The notes below the pieces were generated by a model. The model did not search any database. It worked only from the letters and a program-made list of their open reading frames with translations, and was not told where the DNA came from. The position numbers and the translations under genes are program-made. Below, piece by piece: positions 245 through 15,940 of a stretch of DNA of 24,000 nt. Every line of letters begins with the position of its first letter. The first letter of the stretch is position 1. This stretch comes from Promethearchaeia archaeon (GTDB taxonomy: Archaea > Asgardarchaeota > Lokiarchaeia > Sigyniarchaeales > SOKP01): assembly GCA_029856045.1 (NCBI GenBank), contig JAHQWG010000028.1, forward strand, positions 25,972 to 49,971. The letters run 5' to 3'.

Positions 245-1066
245 GTGATTTACAAAATATTAATTGATATTTCTCATAATGAACAAGTAGAGAGCTTCCC
301 AGACGCTTTTAATGAAGATGATTTTATCATTGAGTTTATAAATAAGAATGAGGGACCGCTAACTTATGATATGTTAGAGGATTTTGATCTCTTAATTTTA
401 GGGAATATTCAACACAGTAAGAACAATAAAGATGATAAATTTACTCCTGAAGAATTAAAAGCCATAAAAGAATTTGTTGGAAAGGGAGGAAGTTTATTAG
501 TAACAACCGGAGCTGGAGGAGATAAAGATATGTCAATCAAACAGGGATCTATTAGAGTTCTTTATAAACTAACTGGTGTGAAAAAATACTGGAATGGAGT
601 GATACGATATCCTAAAAGAAATTCTATTATTGATAATGTCAATTTAAAAATTGATACTATATTTCAACATCCCATTACAGACGGTGTTAGTCGATTAATA
701 TTAGGTAATTGTACATTCTTTTCCATTACGGAAGATGCCGAAGATATAATAACAACATCTGAAAATGCATCATTTGAGTATTTTGATCTAAAAGAAATTG
801 ATGAGATTGGACAAGTTCCCATTTGTGTTATTTCTGAATTTTACAATGGACGAGTGGTAACTTTAGGATCATCATCAATTTTCTTCGAAGATGATGAAAT
901 CGGGATAGATATAGCGGATAATCATAAATTTCTGGAAAATACCATTAGATGGCTCTGTTTTGACAAAGAAGAAATAATTGTTGAAGAAGAGGATAAGGAG
1001 GAAGAAGAAGATGAAGATGATGAAGAAGAAGAAGAAGAGGATTTTGAGGAAGATTCTTTTTTTTAA
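245..1066 (+). CDS. Hypothetical protein, possibly DUF4350 / class-I glutamine-amidotransferase-like fold, with poly-acidic C-terminal tail
   Basis: 273-aa ORF with a GTG start ~8 nt after a GGAGA motif. 'ILIDISHNE' and 'FDLLILGN...EELKAIKEFVGKGGSLLV' resemble DUF4350/GATase1-like proteins (weak, from memory). The last ~30 residues are almost all E/D and end in DSFF. Confidence 0.4.
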   Translation: MIYKILIDISHNEQVESFPDAFNEDDFIIEFINKNEGPLTYDMLEDFDLLILGNIQHSKNNKDDKFTPEELKAIKEFVGKGGSLLVTTGAGGDKDMSIKQGSIRVLYKLTGVKKYWNGVIRYPKRNSIIDNVNLKIDTIFQHPITDGVSRLILGNCTFFSITEDAEDIITTSENASFEYFDLKEIDEIGQVPICVISEFYNGRVVTLGSSSIFFEDDEIGIDIADNHKFLENTIRWLCFDKEEIIVEEEDKEEEEDEDDEEEEEEDFEEDSFF

Positions 1067-8723: not shown

Positions 8724-9311
8724 ATGAGTGAAAATTTAAAATGTAATGTATGTGGTGGAGAAATTTCTGAAGATGATCTTGCATTATTAAAAATTCAGAA
8801 AAAAATTGAATGTAGATATTGTAAAAATCTGATAGTTTTAGATGAAAAGACCGCTAAGATTAAAGAAGATTTATGTTGTGTAATATGTGGGGGTGCTTTA
8901 GCGGTTGAAGATCTATCGGAAAAGGCTCTAGCCTGTAAGTATTGTCAAAATGATTTAGAAGAAATATCTTATAGCGAAGCTAATTATCCAGAAATTTTTA
9001 ACAGATTAAAAGCCATACCCGAAGAAAAAATTATTGAGATTTATAAGACTTTAATGAGAGAGGAGAATTTTGAACAGTTAAATAAAGATGACCAAATTAA
9101 ATTAAAAAAATTTGGTGAATCTTTTATACCAAAAATGAAAGAAATTTATAAAGCGAATAAATGGGATATGGCTACAAAAGCTATTGGATGGTTAGGTCAT
9201 AGTTTGGGAACCTTATTAGGATTAACAATACTAGGTGGTACAATTGGAGGAGCAGTGGGAGTATTGTTATCAGTATTAGGAGTTGCATTCGTTAGAGGCA
9301 AGGCAAAATAA
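8724..9311 (+). CDS. Tail-anchored double zinc-ribbon protein
   Basis: Two CxxC...CxxC ribbons: 'CNVCGGEI..(19)..CRYCKNLI' and 'CVICGGAL..(15)..CKYCQNDL'. A helical middle is followed by a Gly-rich hydrophobic C-terminus 'LGTLLGLTILGGTIGGAVGVLLSVLGVAFV'. First gene of the + strand array. Confidence 0.65.
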   Translation: MSENLKCNVCGGEISEDDLALLKIQKKIECRYCKNLIVLDEKTAKIKEDLCCVICGGALAVEDLSEKALACKYCQNDLEEISYSEANYPEIFNRLKAIPEEKIIEIYKTLMREENFEQLNKDDQIKLKKFGESFIPKMKEIYKANKWDMATKAIGWLGHSLGTLLGLTILGGTIGGAVGVLLSVLGVAFVRGKAK

Positions 9312-9350
9312 ATTGAATAATTTGAAAATTTAAGAATTAGATTTAAAATT

Positions 9351-10448
9351 ATGTTAGAATTTAGATTAGTTCCACAATTTCGCAATAATTGTGTGATTCA
9401 GGGTAAAAAAGAGTTAGTTAGCAGTTTTAAAGAAGGAGATACAGTATTTTTATTATCAAAAATTCCAACAAAAACATTTTCTATCTTAACAAAAGTTGAA
9501 GGGATTATAGATTCTGATGAGAATCTTATCTACATCGATCAAAGGATACTTGGTAAATTAGCAGAAAATGATATGGTGACGATTTTAAAACATAATCCAG
9601 CCGAAGCATTAACAATATATTTAGCAATATCGGAATCTTTTTCCAGAGTTTTCAGCGGTGATTGGACATCTTTTGCCAAAAAACCATTAGAAAATAAAGT
9701 TTTTGATTTTGGACAAGAAGTATCATTTATAATTCCCTGGGAAGATGAACATGGAAACCAACTTCCTCCAATTGCTATTTCAGGATTTGTATATTCAACT
9801 GTTCCTACACCACCTATAAAAGTTGGATTACAAACGAAAATATATTTGAAAAAATTTCCTGAACTACAGCTACAAAAAATAAAACAAACTGGTTTTGAAA
9901 AACAAGAAGCACGTGTAAATATATTGGATAATGAAATCCAACAAAACATTTTGCACCTTATGCAAACGATTAAACAAAATAATTATCCAACTAAGGCAAA
10001 TAAATATAAATTTAAAAATGTTAATGCAAAACAATTATTTGCCTCTATAAACGAGGTTTTTAAAGGATTTCGAGTTGTTGAAGGGCCAACTGAAAAGACA
10101 TTTGATAGTGAAAATCAATCATTTTTAGGTTCCATTGTTTATCTTGCTGAAGAAACTACAGATTCTCTGGCAGTTATTGATCTTCAGGTATTAGCAAAAA
10201 ATCAAAATGGAGAAGTAATACTAATGGTCACTGCTAAAGATAATGATGTTGTTTATAATCTGTTAAATAAATATGATTTATTAATTCGCAAAATTAAAAT
10301 TGGGTTAGAAGAAAAAGCAGAGCTAAAGGTTGAGATTTGTCCTAGCTGTGGGGCAGATTTACCTCTTGATGATGTGGACTCAGATGGATCTATTGAATGT
10401 TTATATTGCCACAGAACCTCAATTATTCCAAAATCATATAGATACTAG
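9351..10448 (+). CDS. Cdc48-N/VAT-N/Ufd1-like N-domain protein with C-terminal zinc ribbon
   Basis: 'LIYIDQRILGKLAENDMVTILKHNPAEALTIYLA' followed by 'KPLENKVFDFGQEVSFII....ISGFVYSTVPTPPIKVGLQTKIYLK' fits the double-psi barrel + beta-clam pattern of Cdc48_N/Cdc48_2 (by eye). The C-terminal 'CPSCGADL..(14)..CLYCHRTSII' is the same ribbon type as in the upstream gene. Confidence 0.5.
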   Translation: MLEFRLVPQFRNNCVIQGKKELVSSFKEGDTVFLLSKIPTKTFSILTKVEGIIDSDENLIYIDQRILGKLAENDMVTILKHNPAEALTIYLAISESFSRVFSGDWTSFAKKPLENKVFDFGQEVSFIIPWEDEHGNQLPPIAISGFVYSTVPTPPIKVGLQTKIYLKKFPELQLQKIKQTGFEKQEARVNILDNEIQQNILHLMQTIKQNNYPTKANKYKFKNVNAKQLFASINEVFKGFRVVEGPTEKTFDSENQSFLGSIVYLAEETTDSLAVIDLQVLAKNQNGEVILMVTAKDNDVVYNLLNKYDLLIRKIKIGLEEKAELKVEICPSCGADLPLDDVDSDGSIECLYCHRTSIIPKSYRY

Positions 10449-10468
10449 ATTTTATTCTTATTAAAATT

Positions 10469-10473
10469 GAGGA
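10469..10473 (+). promoter_or_regulatory. Shine-Dalgarno-like motif (GAGGA) for the E1 gene
   Basis: GAGGA lies 6 nt upstream of the ATG at 10480, in a 31-nt intergenic gap. Confidence 0.4.
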
Positions 10474-10479
10474 TATTGA

Positions 10480-11259
10480 ATGGATTCCGATAGATATACA
10501 CGTTTAAAAGCAATAAAAGAATTTGGTTATGATATAAATTGGGATGATCTTAAAAAATACCATGTTGGCATAGTTGGAGTTGGTGGGTTAGGTGCAGTTT
10601 CAGCCGAAATGGCTACAAGGTGTGGAATTGGCAAGATTTCATTGTTTGATTTTGATATTGTAGAAGAAGTTAATCTCAATAGATTATTTTTTAAACCTCA
10701 ACATGTGGGTTTATTAAAAGTTGAAGCGGCAAAAAAGATTCTGAAAGAAATAAATCCTGATGTGGAGTTTTTTACTTATCCTAAAGACATTATGGATATG
10801 GATTTTGAACCCATATTTGATAAAAAGATTCAAGAAATAGATATTATTCTTAATGGAGTTGATAATCTAGCTGCTCGTGAGTATTTGAATATAAAATGCA
10901 TTAGATTCAAAATACCTTATATAAATGCTGGTGCATCTAGAAGTGGTCTATCAGGTTATGTCCATCCAATAATCCCTTATAAAACAGCTTGTTCTGCATG
11001 CATAAAGCGGATTAATATTGAAAAATCTAATGACCGTGGAGAGCCATGCACCGCATCTCTGCCATCAACTATGGCGATATTAGCTAGTATTCAAATTCAA
11101 GAACTGCTGAAGTATTTATTGAAATTTGGGACGATGATCGATTATGTCATGTACAATATGCTTTCTGGAGAATTTTCATATTATAAGACAATCAGAGATA
11201 ATAAGTGTTCAATTTGTGGAGACTTTAATGTTCTAAAGGAAAATGAAAAACATTTATAG
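10480..11259 (+). CDS. UBA5-like E1 (UFM1-activating-enzyme-like adenylation domain, ThiF/MoeB superfamily)
   Basis: 'VGIVGVGGLGAVSAEMATRCGIGKISLFDFDIVEEVNLNRLFFKPQHVGLLKVEAAKKILKEINPDV' tracks human UBA5 '[67 protein letters not shown]' closely. 'RGEPCTASLPSTMAILASIQIQELLKYLLKFG' tracks '[32 protein letters not shown]', which holds the catalytic Cys (here codon 11047-11049). Zn pairs are 'CSAC' and 'CSIC'. Human sequence recalled from memory. Confidence 0.85.
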   Translation: MDSDRYTRLKAIKEFGYDINWDDLKKYHVGIVGVGGLGAVSAEMATRCGIGKISLFDFDIVEEVNLNRLFFKPQHVGLLKVEAAKKILKEINPDVEFFTYPKDIMDMDFEPIFDKKIQEIDIILNGVDNLAAREYLNIKCIRFKIPYINAGASRSGLSGYVHPIIPYKTACSACIKRINIEKSNDRGEPCTASLPSTMAILASIQIQELLKYLLKFGTMIDYVMYNMLSGEFSYYKTIRDNKCSICGDFNVLKENEKHL

Positions 11260-11298
11260 TATTATGAAAAAAATCTCTGATAATTTAATTAAAAAACT

Positions 11299-11303
11299 GG
11301 AGG
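11299..11303 (+). promoter_or_regulatory. Shine-Dalgarno-like motif (GGAGG) for the JAMM gene
   Basis: GGAGG lies 7 nt upstream of the ATG at 11311. Confidence 0.45.
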
Positions 11304-11310
11304 AATAAAA

Positions 11311-12537
11311 ATGGATTTTGTAAAAATTACAGAGGATATTTTAAATTTTATTAAAAAGCAGGCCATATTAAGCACTGATGAGATATATGGATGGTTAATT
11401 GGATATCAAATGAATAATATTCCATACATAATTACCGCTCTCGATTGTCAAAATTATCTACAGCAGTCATACATCAACGCCATCCCTGATCCCCTAGAGA
11501 TTCAAAAAATTGGTGGCTTAATGCCTCACGGGATTGGCATTATTGGTATATATCATTCTCATCCCTTTAAAAGTGAAGTTTTTCATTCTCATACAGACGA
11601 TGAAACTCTAATAAGCTTAAGTAAACAACTTCCAAATTGTGTGTCAATTGTAACAAATGGAAAAGATATTAATTATTATCAAATGGATAAGTCATTTAAA
11701 TTAGTGGATATTGATCCAAAAATCTGGAAACCTGAAATACCAGAATTCTTACCCATTTTTTTTAATAATTCATTTATTATTAATTTAGAGAAAAATCTAC
11801 TCAATAATGAGAGCCTACATGTAAAAATATTTAATAAATTTAAAGATTATTTAGAAGAGAATTGGGATGATTTTAAATTATTCAAAAATAATATAGAAAT
11901 TTCTTATAATGAAAAAATAAATCAATATTTTAAATCTTCTCTGGATGGAAATTATCTGGAATTGAAGTTTAAAAATAAAAAGAATATTAATGAATTAATT
12001 AAAATTAATGTATTCAATGAAGAAATAGGCGTTAAAGTTGCAGACCAAGCTGATATGGTTTCTTTGCAATTAAATCTTAAATCCTTAGATCTTTTTTATA
12101 TTACCGATAAAAATAGTATTAATGAACTCAGAAATTCAATTAAAATTGAAATAATAAATAATAGTATAATGCCAAAAATCTTTCGATGCTTAATTGATAT
12201 TGATAATTCTGAATTACGAATACCAAATGAGCTTTTTCTTAATTTATATGGATTTTTCATAAAAGTTAATTATTATAATCAAGAGATTATTCAAAAATTA
12301 AATGATACTTATCCAATCAACAATAATTATGAAAATCTTTCGATAAAAAATTGGGAATTTTTAGGTAGGATGTTAAAAATAGTGGATTTATATTTATCTT
12401 TAAAAATTGATAAATCTTCAAAAAGGCTTCTCATCGAATTAGTTGAAAATTTAATTAAATTATCCAAAAATCACAAATGGTATGATAAGATAAAAAAAGT
12501 TTTAGATAAACAAAAAGAATCTTTATTACGATCATAA
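11311..12537 (+). CDS. JAB1/MPN+/JAMM metalloprotease with ~270-aa N/K/I-rich C-terminal extension
   Basis: Catalytic Glu context 'DEIYGWLIGY'. JAMM motif 'GIYHSHPFKSEVFHSHTDDE' (HxH...SxxD, nt 11554-11598). The core covers roughly the first 135 residues and the rest has no motif I recognise. Confidence 0.8.
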   Translation: MDFVKITEDILNFIKKQAILSTDEIYGWLIGYQMNNIPYIITALDCQNYLQQSYINAIPDPLEIQKIGGLMPHGIGIIGIYHSHPFKSEVFHSHTDDETLISLSKQLPNCVSIVTNGKDINYYQMDKSFKLVDIDPKIWKPEIPEFLPIFFNNSFIINLEKNLLNNESLHVKIFNKFKDYLEENWDDFKLFKNNIEISYNEKINQYFKSSLDGNYLELKFKNKKNINELIKINVFNEEIGVKVADQADMVSLQLNLKSLDLFYITDKNSINELRNSIKIEIINNSIMPKIFRCLIDIDNSELRIPNELFLNLYGFFIKVNYYNQEIIQKLNDTYPINNNYENLSIKNWEFLGRMLKIVDLYLSLKIDKSSKRLLIELVENLIKLSKNHKWYDKIKKVLDKQKESLLRS

Positions 12538-12611
12538 TGAATAATTAAATAGATTAAAAAAATTGATTATTATATAATATAAAAATTTAAAAAAATTGAG
12601 GGTAGTAGTTA

Positions 12612-12878
12612 ATGGCAAATATTGGCATCACTACAGTTTATTTTGTTAATAAGTTTGCTCCAGAAAAAAAACATATTCCATTTCCAGTTTCTCCTTCAAT
12701 GACAATGGCAGATCTTTTACCAGAGTTATCTAAAAAGTTTAATATACATTTACAAAATATTTCAATTGCGGTGCAGGATTCACAAGTTTTAACGATAGAA
12801 GAATATTCTTTATCACTAAAGAATTTAATTGATAAATTTGGTAAAACATTTGATATTATTGATAGAAATATAGTAGGC
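12612..12878 (+). other. UFM1-like beta-grasp domain ending at Gly89 (candidate processing site after 12878)
   Basis: Domain-level call within the fusion ORF. The 'DRNIVG' Gly codon ggc lies at 12876-12878 and is followed by the ~10-aa linker 'TEKSDAQYSES'. Confidence 0.6.
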
Positions 12879-13430
12879 ACTGAGAAATCTGATGCACAAT
12901 ATTCAGAAAGTCTGGTGGATGAATTAATTCCTGAGTTTGGAGCCGAATGGGCTAAGATAGGTCCCAAACATCCACGTTGGCAAGAAAGAATAAAAAAAGA
13001 AATAGAAAATATCTTAAGATACGTACATTATCTAAAAAAACTTTCAAATGAGCCATGGTTTAGATTGGTTCCTTCGAAAAATCCTAGACATAATTACCTC
13101 ATTTGGAATGGACATATCCTTGTTCCAAAACGACCAGAAATAAAATTTGATATCGCAATATTATTAACTTCAGAGTATCCTAAAAATTGCCCACGTTGTT
13201 TTGCAGATGACAAAATAATGGATTATTGTGGAAAACTATATTTTGGTAATGTATGGGAGCAAGAAGGGCATAAATACGTGATGATATGCCATGACCATAT
13301 GAGTGAAACCACCGCCTGGAAAGAATCACTGGGGATTGTTCATTTCTTCATAAGAGAGATTTGGATTTGGTGGATGGCTCAACAAAATTTCATCATTCAA
13401 AATTGGGATGAAAAGCATGGTAAAAAGTAA
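12612..13430 (+). CDS. Fusion protein: UFM1-like ubiquitin-fold domain + UFC1-like E2
   Basis: Residues 1-89 end 'FDIIDRNIVG' (human UFM1 mature C-terminus is 'RIIPRDRVG'), and 'IPFPVSPSMTMADLLPELSKKFNI' tracks '[24 protein letters not shown]'. Residues ~100-272: 'LVDELIPEFGAEWAKIGPKHPRWQERIKKEIENILRYVHYLKKLSNEPWFRLVPSKN' tracks UFC1 '[53 protein letters not shown]'. 'KFDIAILLTSEYP' tracks 'EFDIEFDIPITYP', and 'VMICHDHM' tracks 'GKICLTDHF' (catalytic Cys, codon 13287-13289). No HPN motif, as in UFC1. GAGG lies upstream of the ATG. Confidence 0.75.
   Translation: MANIGITTVYFVNKFAPEKKHIPFPVSPSMTMADLLPELSKKFNIHLQNISIAVQDSQVLTIEEYSLSLKNLIDKFGKTFDIIDRNIVGTEKSDAQYSESLVDELIPEFGAEWAKIGPKHPRWQERIKKEIENILRYVHYLKKLSNEPWFRLVPSKNPRHNYLIWNGHILVPKRPEIKFDIAILLTSEYPKNCPRCFADDKIMDYCGKLYFGNVWEQEGHKYVMICHDHMSETTAWKESLGIVHFFIREIWIWWMAQQNFIIQNWDEKHGKK
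12909..13427 (+). other. UFC1-like E2 core domain
   Basis: Domain-level call within the fusion ORF. See the motif comparison under the CDS entry. Confidence 0.65.
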
Positions 13431-13601
13431 TTACATATAAAATTTTTTAATTTTTTCAATTTATAAAGTTATTTTTTAAATAACAAATGAAGGCGAAATA
13501 TTATTAAAAGTAAGGTAAAAAAACCTGAAGAATTAAAAGCATTTACTTACGGAATAAAAAATAGAATATTATCAAATATTAAAAGCATTGAAGCAAAATT
13601 A

Positions 13602-14654
13602 ATGAAAATTATTCAATATTATATAAAATTGGATAATATGGAGATTAATAATGAATTAGAAAAACTTAGAAGGAATCTATTGAAGTTAAAAGATACTTTA
13701 AACGCATATAGAATCCCTCCATCATTAACAAAGATTGATAAAATAAAGAAGAACGTTATTAATAAAATAAAAATGGTAATTTTCTATTTAGAATTGATAC
13801 TGATTGAAACGGAAAAAACTATTTATGATTTTGAAGAAAGTACCCTTGATTTCAAGGATAATGATAATATTGAAGAGGTTCTCAATATTTTCTCAGAATG
13901 TGATAAAAAGATAAATAATTTATTATTACAATTGGATAATTTTGGAGATCTAACTCAATTTAAAAATATTTTCGATTTGATTGAACCTGAAATTGAAAAA
14001 CTATATCCTAAATCTAAAGATATCGAGAAAATTTTGAAGCTAAGTAAAAAAGCCAATTTATTAAAAATCGAGAGAGAGAAATTACCAACAATTCTGAAAA
14101 TTGAAAGGGAAGAAAAGAAAGAAGTAAAAGAAAAAAAAATTATTCAACCTTTAGAAACTGCAGAAGAAAATAATGAAGTTCTACGTAATATTTTCGAAAG
14201 ATTCTCCTTAAAGGTTCCAAATAAGAGTCAATTAATTGATAGTATCGTATCGATTGGGGATTCTAAAATAACAAACGAATTAGGGGGAGTCGTAAAAATA
14301 ACAGCATTATATAACTTTATAAAAGATGAGAATAAGGATTTAGATTTTACATTAGACGATTTAAACAAAGTTTTAAAATATATGAGAAAGAAAGGATATA
14401 TTTCAGATATTGAAGAGATTGAAAATCTAAAGTTAGTAAAATTTATTCCACTTGAACTATCATCAGATCCAAAATTATTATTAGAATCCGTAGGATTCGA
14501 AGGCGTGGAGACTAAAGAAAATTTAATGAAAAAACTTAATTGGCCAGAATCAAGAGTGGATGAGGTTTTAAGGTTTTTAATTGACAAGGGAATATGCAAA
14601 TCAGAAAATAATTCTTTAATAAGTGAAAGATTTTACTTTCCAGGATTAGTATAG
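13602..14654 (+). CDS. EAP30-domain protein (ESCRT-II Vps22/Vps36-like) with N-terminal coiled-coil region
   Basis: The C-terminal ~150 aa 'LGGVVKITALYNFIK...FTLDDLNKVLKYMRKKGY...LVKFIPLELSSDPKLLLESVG...ENLMKKLNWPESRVDEVLRFLIDKGICK....ERFYFPGLV' aligns by eye with human SNF8/EAP30 'NGGLITLEELHQQVL...VSQDDLIRAIKKLKALG...LIQSVPAELNMDHTVVLQLAE...EIKASLKWETERARQVLEHLLKEGLAW...HYWLPALF' (tandem winged helices). The N-terminal ~200 aa is K/E/I-rich and helical. Confidence 0.7.
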   Translation: MKIIQYYIKLDNMEINNELEKLRRNLLKLKDTLNAYRIPPSLTKIDKIKKNVINKIKMVIFYLELILIETEKTIYDFEESTLDFKDNDNIEEVLNIFSECDKKINNLLLQLDNFGDLTQFKNIFDLIEPEIEKLYPKSKDIEKILKLSKKANLLKIEREKLPTILKIEREEKKEVKEKKIIQPLETAEENNEVLRNIFERFSLKVPNKSQLIDSIVSIGDSKITNELGGVVKITALYNFIKDENKDLDFTLDDLNKVLKYMRKKGYISDIEEIENLKLVKFIPLELSSDPKLLLESVGFEGVETKENLMKKLNWPESRVDEVLRFLIDKGICKSENNSLISERFYFPGLV

Positions 14655-14734
14655 AAATTATTTAAAAACATTAATATAGAATAAAGTTTAACAAATAAAT
14701 TAAAAATAAAATATTTAATAAACGGGTGTAAAGA

Positions 14735-15940
14735 ATGGTAGGAGAGATTCCTAGAGGAATTAGTCGAAGTTTAAAAGATAAAGTCTTAGGTAAGAAGTTA
14801 AAAATTGTAGAGATGATGCATGAGACTTCAGCAGATCTAAGTGAAAAAAGAGTGGTTTATCGTTTAGCTCTAACTGGAAAAAAAGAGGCAGGAAAAAGGG
14901 AAGAAAAGGTTTCTGCTTTTATAGTTAAAGCATATGAAAGTGCGATTTTGCTTCAATTAGGAAAGTTTATTGGAATTATTCCAGAAGGCGTTTGGGAAAT
15001 TGAAAAAGAATTTCAATACACAGGGACTGAAATTATCTGGGTTGATAAAACAGAGTTTAAAACTAGATGGGGTTTAGCAGATATTTACTTAAATGATAAT
15101 ATTAAAGTAGGGGCTCATGGTTCACTTGTAGTAAAAATTTCAGAACCGAAAAATTTTGTGTTAAATGTTGTCTCAAATAAGCAGATTGTTGACAGAGGAC
15201 AAGTCGATAAATTCATTTTTGAGCACGTAGGTCAAAGTTATAAAGATATACTTGGTGGTTTTTCGATCAATGATGTTATTAGAAGTCGAGATATGATTAA
15301 ACAAAAAGTAAATGCAAAATTATATGATCTTCTAACTCATTGGGGTATTGAATTAATAAATATGGAAATAGAAGGCTTCAAGCTTCCTGAAGAATTTGAG
15401 GAAATTGGTCAAGTATCCATGGAAACCTCACTTGAAAAACAGAAAGCAATCTCAGATAGGGAACGCATAAAAGAGGAAATTGAAACTGTAAAGATACAAT
15501 CAGAATTAGAAGCCCAAAAAAGAGAAATAGAGGCAAATAGAAAAGGTTTTGAACGTGAACAAGCCGTTATAGACTCTCAAATTGGTTATGAAAAAGCTAA
15601 ATATGATGCTAAAGCAAAAGAAATTGAAGGAACTGTGAGTGTTGAATTACTGGAAAAACAGCAAAAAGCTAAAGCAGCAGGAGATGTAGCAAAAATTGAA
15701 GTTACTGGTGATAAAATGGCCAAAATTGTTGAAGCTCAAGCCGGAGTAGATAAGAGTCAAGAGGACTTAAAACGAGAACGACAACAAAAGATTAAGCAAG
15801 AAATTTCCGAATTAAAAGAGAAATTAAATAAATTTGATGATTTATTGGCTGAAGGAAAACTTTCTGAAGATATATATAAAGTGCGAGTTTCTCGAATTGA
15901 GAAAGAGTTGAAAGATCTTGAAACAAAACTTCTAGATTAA
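14735..15940 (+). CDS. SPFH/band-7 (Band_7_1, B. subtilis YdjI-like) protein with long C-terminal coiled coil
   Basis: 'IIWVDKTEFKTRWGLADIYLND.NIKVGAHGSLVVKISEPKNFVLNVVS' tracks YdjI 'VLFVNTKEFTVRWGTKQAINI...IRANGTFTFKVQDYVSLIDKIAG' (from memory). 'GIELINMEIEGFKLPEE' tracks 'GLTVTGFQIMSFNYPQE'. The last ~170 aa is E/K/Q-rich coiled coil. GGGTG lies 6 nt before the ATG. Confidence 0.7.
   Translation: MVGEIPRGISRSLKDKVLGKKLKIVEMMHETSADLSEKRVVYRLALTGKKEAGKREEKVSAFIVKAYESAILLQLGKFIGIIPEGVWEIEKEFQYTGTEIIWVDKTEFKTRWGLADIYLNDNIKVGAHGSLVVKISEPKNFVLNVVSNKQIVDRGQVDKFIFEHVGQSYKDILGGFSINDVIRSRDMIKQKVNAKLYDLLTHWGIELINMEIEGFKLPEEFEEIGQVSMETSLEKQKAISDRERIKEEIETVKIQSELEAQKREIEANRKGFEREQAVIDSQIGYEKAKYDAKAKEIEGTVSVELLEKQQKAKAAGDVAKIEVTGDKMAKIVEAQAGVDKSQEDLKRERQQKIKQEISELKEKLNKFDDLLAEGKLSEDIYKVRVSRIEKELKDLETKLLD

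Follow-up and report, generated by a model that had tools for sequence, protein, structure and literature searches.

Is the UFM1 pathway of eukaryotes also present, as a set of linked genes, in archaea? Attachment of the ubiquitin-like modifier UFM1 (UFMylation) is an essential eukaryotic modification tied to ribosomes docked on the endoplasmic reticulum (ER), to ER-phagy and to DNA repair, and its conjugating enzyme, UFC1, lacks the usual catalytic motifs of such enzymes. The question is raised by three successive plus-strand open reading frames (ORFs) in a stretch of 24,000 nucleotides (nt) from a Promethearchaeia archaeon, a member of the Asgard archaea (contig JAHQWG010000028.1, positions 25,972 to 49,971). 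We call this whole stretch the window; coordinates below are window positions unless a locus is named, and the genes of the cassette and its neighbours lie on the plus strand. The three ORFs encode an activating enzyme (E1; 10480-11259, 259 amino acids (aa)), a JAB-type metalloprotease (11311-12537, 408 aa) and a ubiquitin-like domain (Ubl) fused to a conjugating enzyme (E2; 12612-13430, 272 aa for the fusion). A first-pass annotation, made from the letters of the sequence alone, had read these genes as a UFM1-type cassette, and all three are found exactly where it had placed them. We consider it likely that the region is the core of an Asgard Ubl conjugation system and that, among known prokaryotic proteins, its E1, E2 and modifier are the nearest relatives of eukaryotic UBA5, UFC1 and UFM1, respectively. 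The window is AT-rich (about 28% G+C) and carries a tight run of plus-strand genes; gaps between the core genes are 31-74 nt, which fits an operon.

A UBA5-type E1

The E1 has a ThiF fold (Pfam ThiF, 5.5e-50). When it is compared with all sequences in the Protein Data Bank (PDB), the top matches are five human UBA5 constructs, matched at full length (2e-54, 188 bits), followed at a distance by Escherichia coli MoeB (91 bits), UBA1 (67 bits) and ThiF (64 bits). The NCBIfam models for MoeB (115 bits), ThiF (110 bits) and UbaA (77 bits), the activating enzyme of the small archaeal modifier proteins (SAMPs), all score far below their family cutoffs. The proposal that the enzyme is of the UBA5 type, rather than a MoeB, ThiF or SAMP-activating enzyme, is thus borne out, with 188 bits for UBA5 against 91 (PDB) and 115 (NCBIfam) for MoeB, 64 and 110 for ThiF and 77 for UbaA. 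Identity to the adenylation domain of human UBA5 is 38.9% across 270 aa, and the two motif blocks on which the proposal had relied (NRLFF.P...G..KV.AA...L..INPDV and C.ASLP.TM......Q..LK.LL.FG) align with the human protein column for column.

The E1 and the other parts of the cassette are homologous to their counterparts and conserve the catalytic residues. In the E1, the glycine-rich nucleotide-binding loop GVGGLG falls within 10573-10590, and the candidate catalytic residue, Cys190 (11047-11049), located in GEPCTASLPSTM, aligns with the catalytic Cys of UBA5 (the C250 position). A four-cysteine zinc site is made up of CxxC pairs at residues 171-174 and 243-246, the first of which (TACSAC) is aligned with SACFAC of UBA5. 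The window protein stops 13 residues past the last of these pairs, with the tail GDFNVLKENEKHL. The closest 120 E1 homologues in a collection of 5.8 billion proteins all belong to Asgard archaea.

A UFC1-type E2

The second part of the fusion (12879-13430) comprises a linker and the E2 domain (residues ~95-272). UFC1 (PF08694) is the top Pfam model, with 27.2 bits (cutoff 25) against 14.6 for UEV and 13.7 for UQ_con. Among 43 homologues, UFC1 is matched by 42, UEV by 20 and UQ_con by ten, and UFC1 gives the best E-value of the three; its scores range from 27 to 39 bits, compared with at most 14-17 for UQ_con. A phmmer search of the PDB finds UFC1 at E = 4e-7. UFC1 chains make up 25 of its 27 matches at E <= 10; the remaining two are an uncharacterised protein and a Leishmania entry named 'probable Ubiquitin fold modifier conjugating enzyme'. 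When a profile of 29 standalone Asgard E2s is used as the hhalign query, UFC1 is aligned at 97.5% (E = 5.4e-12, 147 columns including the catalytic Cys) and UBE2D2 at 16%. When the model of the fusion is compared with the PDB by Foldseek, ranks 1-5 fall to the E2 domain and are all UFC1 (E = 5e-7 to 9e-5, TM 0.67-0.71), and the first UBC-type E2 appears at rank 34 (TM 0.50).

An exhaustive HMMER search of 1.84 billion representatives returned only 76 proteins. The non-Asgard matches that were checked in this set are genuine UFC1s (150-216 bits to Pfam UFC1), and no UBC-type E2 is found among the checked hits. In the reverse direction, a UBE2D2 query matches none of 115 family proteins even at E <= 10, whereas a true UFC1 query finds most of them. 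The domain is thus UFC1-like rather than UBC-like by Pfam, hhalign, Foldseek and exhaustive search alike, as had been anticipated.

Cys226, His227 and His229 are invariant in the 43 homologues, and Cys226 aligns with C116 of UFC1. Lys208, the equivalent of K108 in the TAK motif of UFC1, is present in 41 of the 43, and the block to which it belongs, CGKLY (13227-13241), aligns with TAKMY. The catalytic Cys lies in MICHDH (13281-13298), and an extra β-hairpin precedes the active site. The GP..W..R.K.E..YV...WFRL block named in the first-pass annotation aligns with human UFC1. Its description of the active site as 'IC..DH' without an HPN motif stands in part: there is no HPN motif at the E2 active site and the Cys is aligned, but the real site, ICHDH, is one residue shorter.

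Several UFC1-like paralogues (P0194, P0195, P0207, P0206 and P0209) have lost the catalytic Cys (for instance 'VMIDYDTH' and 'VNIDHGH') and are analogous to UEV domains; P0206 and P0209 contain a Ubl as well as the Cys-less E2-like domain, and both have a long C-terminal extension. Two metagenomic UFC1s of the eukaryotic type (P0246 and P0223) have hydrophobic N-terminal extensions that resemble membrane anchors, a feature not seen in human UFC1 (167 aa). Asgard-type E2 fragments (65-71% identity) were also found at two loci (L033 and L041) in AMOR_Bin_1762, a bin labelled Patescibacteria, and are most likely misbinned Asgard contigs.

A UFM1-like Ubl ending in Val-Gly

Residues 1-89 of the fusion (12612-12878) form the Ubl domain, whose proposed link to UFM1 is drawn at the level of modelled structure and C-terminal motif only. 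AlphaFold2 (AF2) models the entire fusion with confidence (pLDDT 89.8, pTM 0.87), and the best Foldseek matches of the Ubl in the PDB are UFM1 chains (TM 0.82-0.89; rmsd ~1.5 Å, range 1.4-2.6 Å). Other Ubls, ubiquitin and Caldiarchaeum ubiquitin trail at TM 0.6-0.78. The domain thus models as the UFM1-like β-grasp that had been proposed for it, at about 15% identity to its eukaryotic counterpart. It ends in IIDRNIVG, with Gly89 encoded at 12876-12878, and human UFM1, as we verified, ends in IIPRDRVG; the suggestion that the terminus follows the '(I)I.R..VG' pattern of mature UFM1, and not LRGG, is therefore correct.

In the family as a whole this motif reads (I/V)I(D/N)R..VG, with the Gly invariant and Val88 conserved in at least 90%. 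The family occurs in two architectures: a fused Ubl-E2 of about 270 aa, as in the window, or two separate genes, the first for a Ubl of about 90 aa and the second for an E2 of about 180 aa. Standalone Ubls end exactly at VG, as at locus L007 (IIDRGIVG followed by the stop codon), or carry tails of 1-9 residues. Judging by this pattern, Gly89 is the predicted site of both conjugation and cleavage. In a divergent paralogue, P0233 (874 aa; region ~197-410), VG is followed directly by the nucleophilic Cys of a Hint/Vint autoprocessing domain of the intein type ('FIDHRVVG' running into 'CFSGNT') and then by leucine-rich repeats (LRRs). A Hint domain in this position would form an acyl intermediate on exactly that Gly, and the arrangement could provide for E1-independent activation of the Ubl terminal Gly.

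A JAMM protease in place of UFSP

The gene between the E1 and the fusion (11311-12537) encodes a JAMM/MPN+ metalloprotease (Pfam Prok-JAB, 3e-6). The catalytic domain spans residues 1-130 and contains Glu24 (11380-11382) and the H82-S-H84...S93..D96 block (11554-11598); E24, H82, H84, S93 and D96 are invariant across 14 diverse homologues. A profile of this domain finds the Rpn11-like deubiquitinase (DUB) of Caldiarchaeum (CsRpn11) as its best PDB match (4e-12), followed by BRCC36, AMSH, Rpn11 and CSN5; BilC (E = 2e-3) and PfJAMM1 are more distant than the Rpn11-type enzymes. To the NCBIfam desampylase model the protein scores only 16 bits, where 130 would be needed to pass. The C-terminal ~280 residues gave no match to anything.

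A syntenic cassette across Asgard archaea

Genomic-context queries, together with a survey of the species representatives in GTDB, yielded 33 loci, from Promethearchaeota (Loki), Hermod-, Odin-, Heimdall- and Hodarchaeota and from Sigynarchaeum. The cassette occurs in at least seven Asgard lineages with conserved synteny and, by local searches with hidden Markov models (HMMs), nearly all loci share the gene order X365-E1-JAB-Ubl-E2. X365 (9351-10448, 365 aa) is a conserved fifth core gene, and homologues of about 360 aa adjoin the E1 in Loki, Hermod, Hod and Heimdall loci. On the other side, a Vps22/EAP30-like protein (13602-14654, 350 aa) and an SPFH/Band-7 protein with a C-terminal coiled coil (14735-15940, 401 aa; Pfam Band_7 4.7e-16, Band_7_1 3.4e-9) form a pair, which about 19 of roughly 25 informative loci have next to the cassette, with synteny of SPFH, Vps22-like protein and cassette spanning Loki, Hermod and Heimdall loci. 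The three genes picked out by the first-pass annotation are thus real, but the conserved system is larger than the three-gene cassette it described, including X365 in the core and the Vps22-like and SPFH proteins as neighbours. The cassette is also present in the complete genome of the cultured Candidatus (Ca.) Lokiarchaeum ossiferum, where the E1 is short and tail-less (258 aa) and the Ubl and E2 are separate genes.

Individual loci depart from this layout. In a Heimdallarchaeota locus (L006, WJIK01000029.1), a second UFC1-like E2 (192 aa) and a second JAB protein (461 aa) adjoin the cassette at 12547-14566 of that locus, which also carries two tandem Vps22-like paralogues. In two Loki-type loci (L007, positions 8739-15129, and L008), the cassette is flanked by HEPN/nucleotidyltransferase genes, a DEAD/Cas3-like helicase and two BrxC/BrxD-like genes; these flanks resemble a defence island, unlike the housekeeping setting of the window. 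Fusions to modules of an immune or conflict type were seen as well: TIR-Ubl (P0196), SIR2-TPR-E2-like, with Ser for the catalytic Cys (P0177), an E2-like domain joined to LRRs (P0184) and an E2 joined to a zinc ribbon (P0042).

The C-terminal tail of the E1

The typical Asgard E1 has about 275 aa and continues past the zinc site with a Lys-rich linker and a terminal helix whose consensus at the C-terminus is ELDxLIDKLKE-COOH. The core pattern L-D-x-L-I-x-K-L-K-E-COOH is present in most Asgard E1s, and the terminal helix is also seen in Hod and Heimdall forms. In human UBA5, the UFC1-binding sequence (UBS) is likewise a C-terminal helix, in which L394, L397, M398, K400, M401, K402 and M404-COOH are the residues concerned (PMC8481289). 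In the Asgard tail, positions i, i+3, i+4 and i+7 are hydrophobic and positions i+6 and i+8 are Lys, which is the same pattern as in the human UBS. On the side of the E2, the character of the UFC1 pocket residues (L32, L39, I40, V43, F54, L56, K47 and R55) is kept in the 43 Asgard E2s. From the residue pattern and the conserved pocket we infer that the tail may be a UBS-like helix that recruits the E2, a parallel that stays at the level of motifs because so short a tail cannot give a significant database match.

In the window, this tail, MKNIYSIMKKISDNLIKKLEE followed by a stop codon, sits in the +1 frame on the plus strand (11243-11308), where it overlaps the E1 stop (11257-11259); a 1-nt insertion in the run of A at 11246-11250 is consistent with this. 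Relatives have the tail in frame, as in P0045, which ends in NDLNNLIKKLEE. Because of the frameshift, the window E1 lacks the putative E2-binding tail. The truncation is not an assembly error, since the same 259-aa E1 recurs in several protein variants and in independent assemblies. We found no correlation between loss of the E1 tail and fusion of Ubl and E2.

The ORF of the tail remnant, ending in ISDNLIKKLEE, is still intact and starts with ATG. It could reflect a recent mutation, encode a separate micropeptide or be restored to the E1 through slippage or frameshifting. Comparison of loci L001-L003 was uninformative about selection on this ORF, as they are from the same strain and their cassettes are more than 99.9% identical.

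X365, Vps22-like and SPFH partners

X365 consists of an N-terminal Cdc48/p97-N-like domain, a helical or α-β middle part and a C-terminal CxxC...CxxC zinc ribbon ending in P..RY. No Pfam or NCBIfam family matches it. Homologues from Loki, Hod and Heimdall align over the full length, and the four zinc-ribbon residues (Cys330, Cys333, Cys350 and Cys353) are invariant. The AF2 model is of moderate quality (pLDDT 72), and its top five Foldseek matches in the PDB are N-domains of p97/Cdc48 (5e-6 to 1.4e-4). For the middle domain, an SRPBCC/TBP-like fold was considered and set aside, the matches (E ~1e-2) being judged unreliable. X365 is a candidate for a Ubl-binding adaptor or a scaffold E3.

In the Vps22-like protein, the N-terminal part is a coiled-coil region and the C-terminal part a tandem winged-helix. 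Pfam EAP30 matches it at 8e-6, with 26.1 bits against a cutoff of 26.8, and its Heimdall orthologues pass the cutoff (30.4 bits); human SNF8 is matched at 3.8e-4. No Vps25, ESCRT-III or Vps4 gene was found in the window or the examined flanks, ESCRT denoting the endosomal sorting complexes required for transport. The protein is best treated as a paralogue of the ESCRT-II subunit Vps22. A winged-helix E3 subunit of the UFL1/DDRGK1 kind was also considered, but on sequence this identity is rejected: the protein is matched best by SNF8/Vps22 and EAP30, and neither UFL1 nor DDRGK gives a hit.

Of particular interest is a 464-aa protein of L. ossiferum (L015, 3108-4502 on the minus strand; CP104013.1, ~1.04 Mb), in which the body of X365 (E = 6e-25) is joined to the double winged-helix of the Vps22-like protein (37% identity, 2e-20), the winged-helix taking the place of the zinc ribbon. 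This fusion argues that X365 and the Vps22-like protein may act together.

A proposed conjugation cycle

How the parts may work together, and what the accessory proteins may contribute, can be proposed from homology and gene context. The JAMM enzyme would cut the fusion after Gly89, between DRNIVG and TEKS, and so release a UFM1-like modifier ending in Val-Gly and a separate E2. Such a cleavage is suggested by the intact JAMM site, by the precedent of the Rpn11-like enzyme of Caldiarchaeum and by the separate-gene Ubls that end at the same Gly. The UBA5-like E1, presumably a homodimer, would then adenylate Gly89 and take up the Ubl as a thioester on Cys190, from which it would pass to Cys226 of the UFC1-like E2. 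The short C-terminal amphipathic helix of the E1, which in this strain is frameshifted off, would recruit the E2 in most relatives. Finally, the Ubl would be moved onto lysines of target proteins, with X365 and the Vps22-like protein probably serving as adaptor or scaffold, possibly at membrane sites organised by the SPFH protein, and the JAMM enzyme may also undo the modification.

Evidence against, and alternative explanations

Several observations weigh against an Asgard system of the UFM1 type. The E1 has no UFM1-interacting sequence (UIS), its relatives showing only about 29 residues past the zinc site, all of them accounted for by the linker and the terminal helix; a profile of the E1 tail has no significant match in the PDB, the tail being too short for database search; and the tail is absent in frame here and in several other lineages, including L. 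ossiferum. Homologues of UBA5 were reported in 2023 from diverse bacteria and archaea, with a bacterial origin favoured (PMC10183829). For the E2, identity to UFC1 is just 22-24%, and the window protein exceeds the Pfam UFC1 cutoff by a small margin (27.2 against 25 bits). The Ubl is more difficult still: the Pfam Ufm1 model (PF03671) matches none of 15 Ubl members at E <= 10, a Ubl profile finds no UFM1 in the PDB but only weak generic Ubl matches, and hhalign gives just 30% for human UFM1 (60 columns, through the terminal VG) and 11% for ubiquitin. The Pfam test suggested in the first-pass annotation therefore came out in favour of the E1 (ThiF) and the E2 (UFC1) and failed for the Ubl, and since neither PDB nor Pfam provides a UFM1 match, the assignment of the Ubl cannot rest on its sequence. 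In addition, the protease of the cassette is a JAMM enzyme and not a UFSP cysteine protease, no homologue of UFL1, DDRGK1 or CDK5RAP3 was found in the window, and no cassette protein matches the UFL1 or DDRGK families in Pfam.

One alternative is a generic archaeal ubiquitin-like operon of the Caldiarchaeum kind (Ub-E1-E2-RING-Rpn11) that is not specifically related to the UFM1 pathway, the likeness to UBA5, UFC1 and UFM1 being due to ancestry shared by all E1, E2 and Ubl families or to convergence. The JAMM enzyme has its nearest solved relative in the Rpn11-like DUB of Caldiarchaeum, the ubiquitin of that archaeon appears at ranks 18 and 27 among the structural matches of the Ubl, and the Ubl has no significant UFM1 match in sequence. 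We nevertheless regard this explanation as unlikely, because the E2 is not of the UBC type (UBE2D2 finds no member at E <= 10, and hhalign gives 97.5% for UFC1 against 16% for UBE2D2), the bit score of the E1 for UBA5 is twice that for any other E1, a RING E3 is lacking, and the Ubl ends in VG, not GG, with UFM1 chains giving the best TM-scores. The same VG terminus, where GG is typical of sulfur carriers, speaks against a role of the E1 and Ubl in sulfur transfer, by thiocarboxylate chemistry like that of MoaD, ThiS, SAMP or Urm1, instead of conjugation. The ThiF/MoeB fold and the secondary matches to MoeB and ThiF models are in keeping with such a role, but the MoeB, ThiF and UbaA scores are far under the family cutoffs, the operon also encodes a JAMM protease and a dedicated E2 whose Cys is invariant, and no rhodanese domain or cofactor-biosynthesis genes lie nearby, so that sulfur transfer is barely credible.

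Two other explanations accept the resemblance but differ on where the genes come from or what they are for. Asgard archaea may have acquired them from eukaryotes by horizontal transfer and added the archaeal parts, in which case they would say nothing about the origin of UFMylation. UFM1 and UFC1 were indeed reported absent from prokaryotic reference proteomes (PMC10183829), but synteny has been kept over at least seven Asgard lineages, identity to the eukaryotic proteins is low (E2 22-24%, Ubl ~15%, E1 39%), and the operon, the JAMM protease, the Ubl-E2 fusions, the short E1 and the AT-rich native composition are not eukaryotic in architecture; a published Ufm1 phylogeny also favoured an Asgard provenance (PMC12962969). 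Transfer is thus quite unlikely. Alternatively, the cassette could be a conflict or antiviral Ubl system like bacterial Bil/Bub or Cap2/Cap3 of the cyclic-oligonucleotide-based antiphage signalling system (CBASS), tagging proteins of the invader or of the cell itself during infection. Bacterial operons with the same E1, E2, JAB and Ubl content are known defence systems, the L007 and L008 cassettes stand beside HEPN/nucleotidyltransferase, helicase and BrxC/BrxD-like genes, TIR, SIR2-TPR, LRR and Hint domains occur in fusions with divergent Ubl and E2 paralogues, and the E1 has weak Cap2-type matches. Against this, PADLOC returned weak hits and nothing specific (64 bits for the E1, compared with 188 for UBA5, and a marginal E ~0.003-0.005 for the E2), the JAMM domain is closer to Rpn11-type enzymes than to BilC and Cap-type JABs, and the cassette is widespread and stable, has the same Vps22-like and SPFH neighbours in most lineages and, in the window, lies among housekeeping genes of native composition. 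We consider a defence function very unlikely.

Relation to known systems and possible origin

Comparison of the UFM1-type Asgard system with eukaryotic UFMylation (human structures 6H77, 7NVK and 8BZR) shows shared and distinct features. In both, the E1 has its catalytic Cys and zinc site in aligned positions, at 39% identity to the UBA5 adenylation domain; the E2 is of the UFC1 type, with no HPN motif, the TAK Lys kept and the Cys aligned; and the Ubl has a β-grasp closest to UFM1 and ends in ..R..VG. The UBS residue pattern is found on most Asgard E1 tails, together with matching residues in the E2 pocket. Unlike their eukaryotic counterparts, the Asgard genes form an operon, a JAMM enzyme stands in for UFSP, and the Ubl is in many cases joined to the E2, which then itself makes up the 'tail' of the precursor. 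The Asgard E1 also differs from UBA5 in having neither the UIS nor the long linker, and the E2 from UFC1 in its active site (ICHDH, not IC..DH) and the extra β-hairpin before the Cys. Instead of UFL1, DDRGK1 and CDK5RAP3, there are Cdc48-N/zinc-ribbon, Vps22-like and SPFH proteins.

Among prokaryotic systems, the operon of Caldiarchaeum subterraneum (PMC6043591) is similar in combining an archaeal Ubl, an E1, an E2 and a JAMM enzyme that there matures the Ubl precursor; it differs in its UBC-type E2, its ubiquitin-like Ubl ending in GG and its RING E3, where the Asgard locus has a UFM1-type trio and no RING. Bil/Bub and CBASS Cap2/Cap3 share the E1, E2, JAB and Ubl content, and some Asgard paralogues have immune-type fusions, but the sequences are distant (Cap2 64 bits, BilC E = 2e-3), and the Asgard cassette has a stable chromosomal context with Vps22-like and SPFH genes. 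Sampylation (SAMP, UbaA and HvJAMM1) is likewise archaeal and pairs a ThiF-type E1 with a β-grasp modifier and a JAMM enzyme, but it has no E2, and the E1 described here scores 77 bits to UbaA against a cutoff of 450. The ubiquitin-ESCRT clusters of Asgard archaea (PMC9192718) resemble the present locus in linking Ubl-system genes to a winged-helix protein of the EAP30/Vps22 family. In those clusters, however, the canonical Vps22 is ~28 kDa and is accompanied by Vps25, ESCRT-III and Vps4, whereas the neighbour here has 350-460 aa and is accompanied by SPFH. E1, E2 and DUB genes were identified in that study by generic InterPro domains only (PMC9192718).

Earlier work bears on the parts of the system to different degrees. 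A structure-based search had found Ufm1 homologues in nine Asgard clades and in no other prokaryote, some of them within larger proteins (bioRxiv 2024.07.03.601958; Nat Microbiol 2026, PMC12962969), and these are very probably the same Ubl family as the one described here. The main text of that study (PMC12962969) deals with the modifier only and does not mention UBA5, UFC1, a JAMM protease, an operon, the fusion or accessory genes. A phylogenomic study of 2023 called UFM1, UFC1 and UFSP2 exclusive to eukaryotes, noted prokaryotic homologues of UBA5, and assigned an Asgard origin to UFL1 and DDRGK1 (PMC10183829). It is the only publication that we found to treat UFC1 and Asgard archaea together, and no archaeal UFC1 under another name was found. 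Our search of the searchable literature likewise gave no description of the full operon, although papers beyond its reach may exist.

We conclude that an archaeal UFM1-type conjugation system is real and largely undescribed, and that a UFM1-type pathway probably existed in the archaeal relatives of eukaryotes. At this locus the modifier is part of a conserved operon that also encodes a UBA5-type E1 and a UFC1-type E2; this would shift the origin of the whole E1-E2-Ubl core into the archaeal lineage nearest to eukaryotes. A more far-reaching idea is that Asgard archaea hold the ancestral and complete UFM1-type pathway, made up of the modifier, a UFC1-type E2 and a UBA5-type E1 whose UBS-like tail recruits the E2, and working with a Vps22-like protein, a Cdc48-N-like zinc-ribbon adaptor and an SPFH scaffold, and that UFMylation predates eukaryotes and descends from this operon. 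We offer this idea tentatively; it is possible, though on balance we lean against it. If it were true, the archaeal accessory proteins would later have been replaced by UFSP proteases and by UFL1, DDRGK1 and CDK5RAP3, and the use of non-catalytic winged-helix scaffolds at membranes would also be older than eukaryotes. The system is minimal, being built of small proteins without a large eukaryotic E3, and it is present in the cultured Ca. Lokiarchaeum ossiferum. It opens questions about how UFC1 is activated, what the ancestral targets were and whether the link to Vps22-like and SPFH proteins reflects an early role at membranes.

Other genes in the window

A small protein of 195 aa (8724-9311) is encoded 39 nt upstream of X365. 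Two zinc ribbons (CxxC...CxxC) are followed in it by a transmembrane segment at the C-terminus that is rich in Gly, and no family in Pfam or NCBIfam is matched. Its homologues come from the same strain (L001-L003), apart from a partial copy on the opposite strand in L012. The protein is a lineage-restricted neighbour and an uncertain member of the system.

At the beginning of the window (245-1066), a ThuA/GATase1-like protein has a short match to the GIFT domain of IFT52 (32.5 bits, above the Pfam cutoff of 27.2), the meaning of which is uncertain. The remaining genes of the window are housekeeping genes and include radical SAM enzymes, FKBP, PHP and ATP-grasp proteins, an aminotransferase and others.

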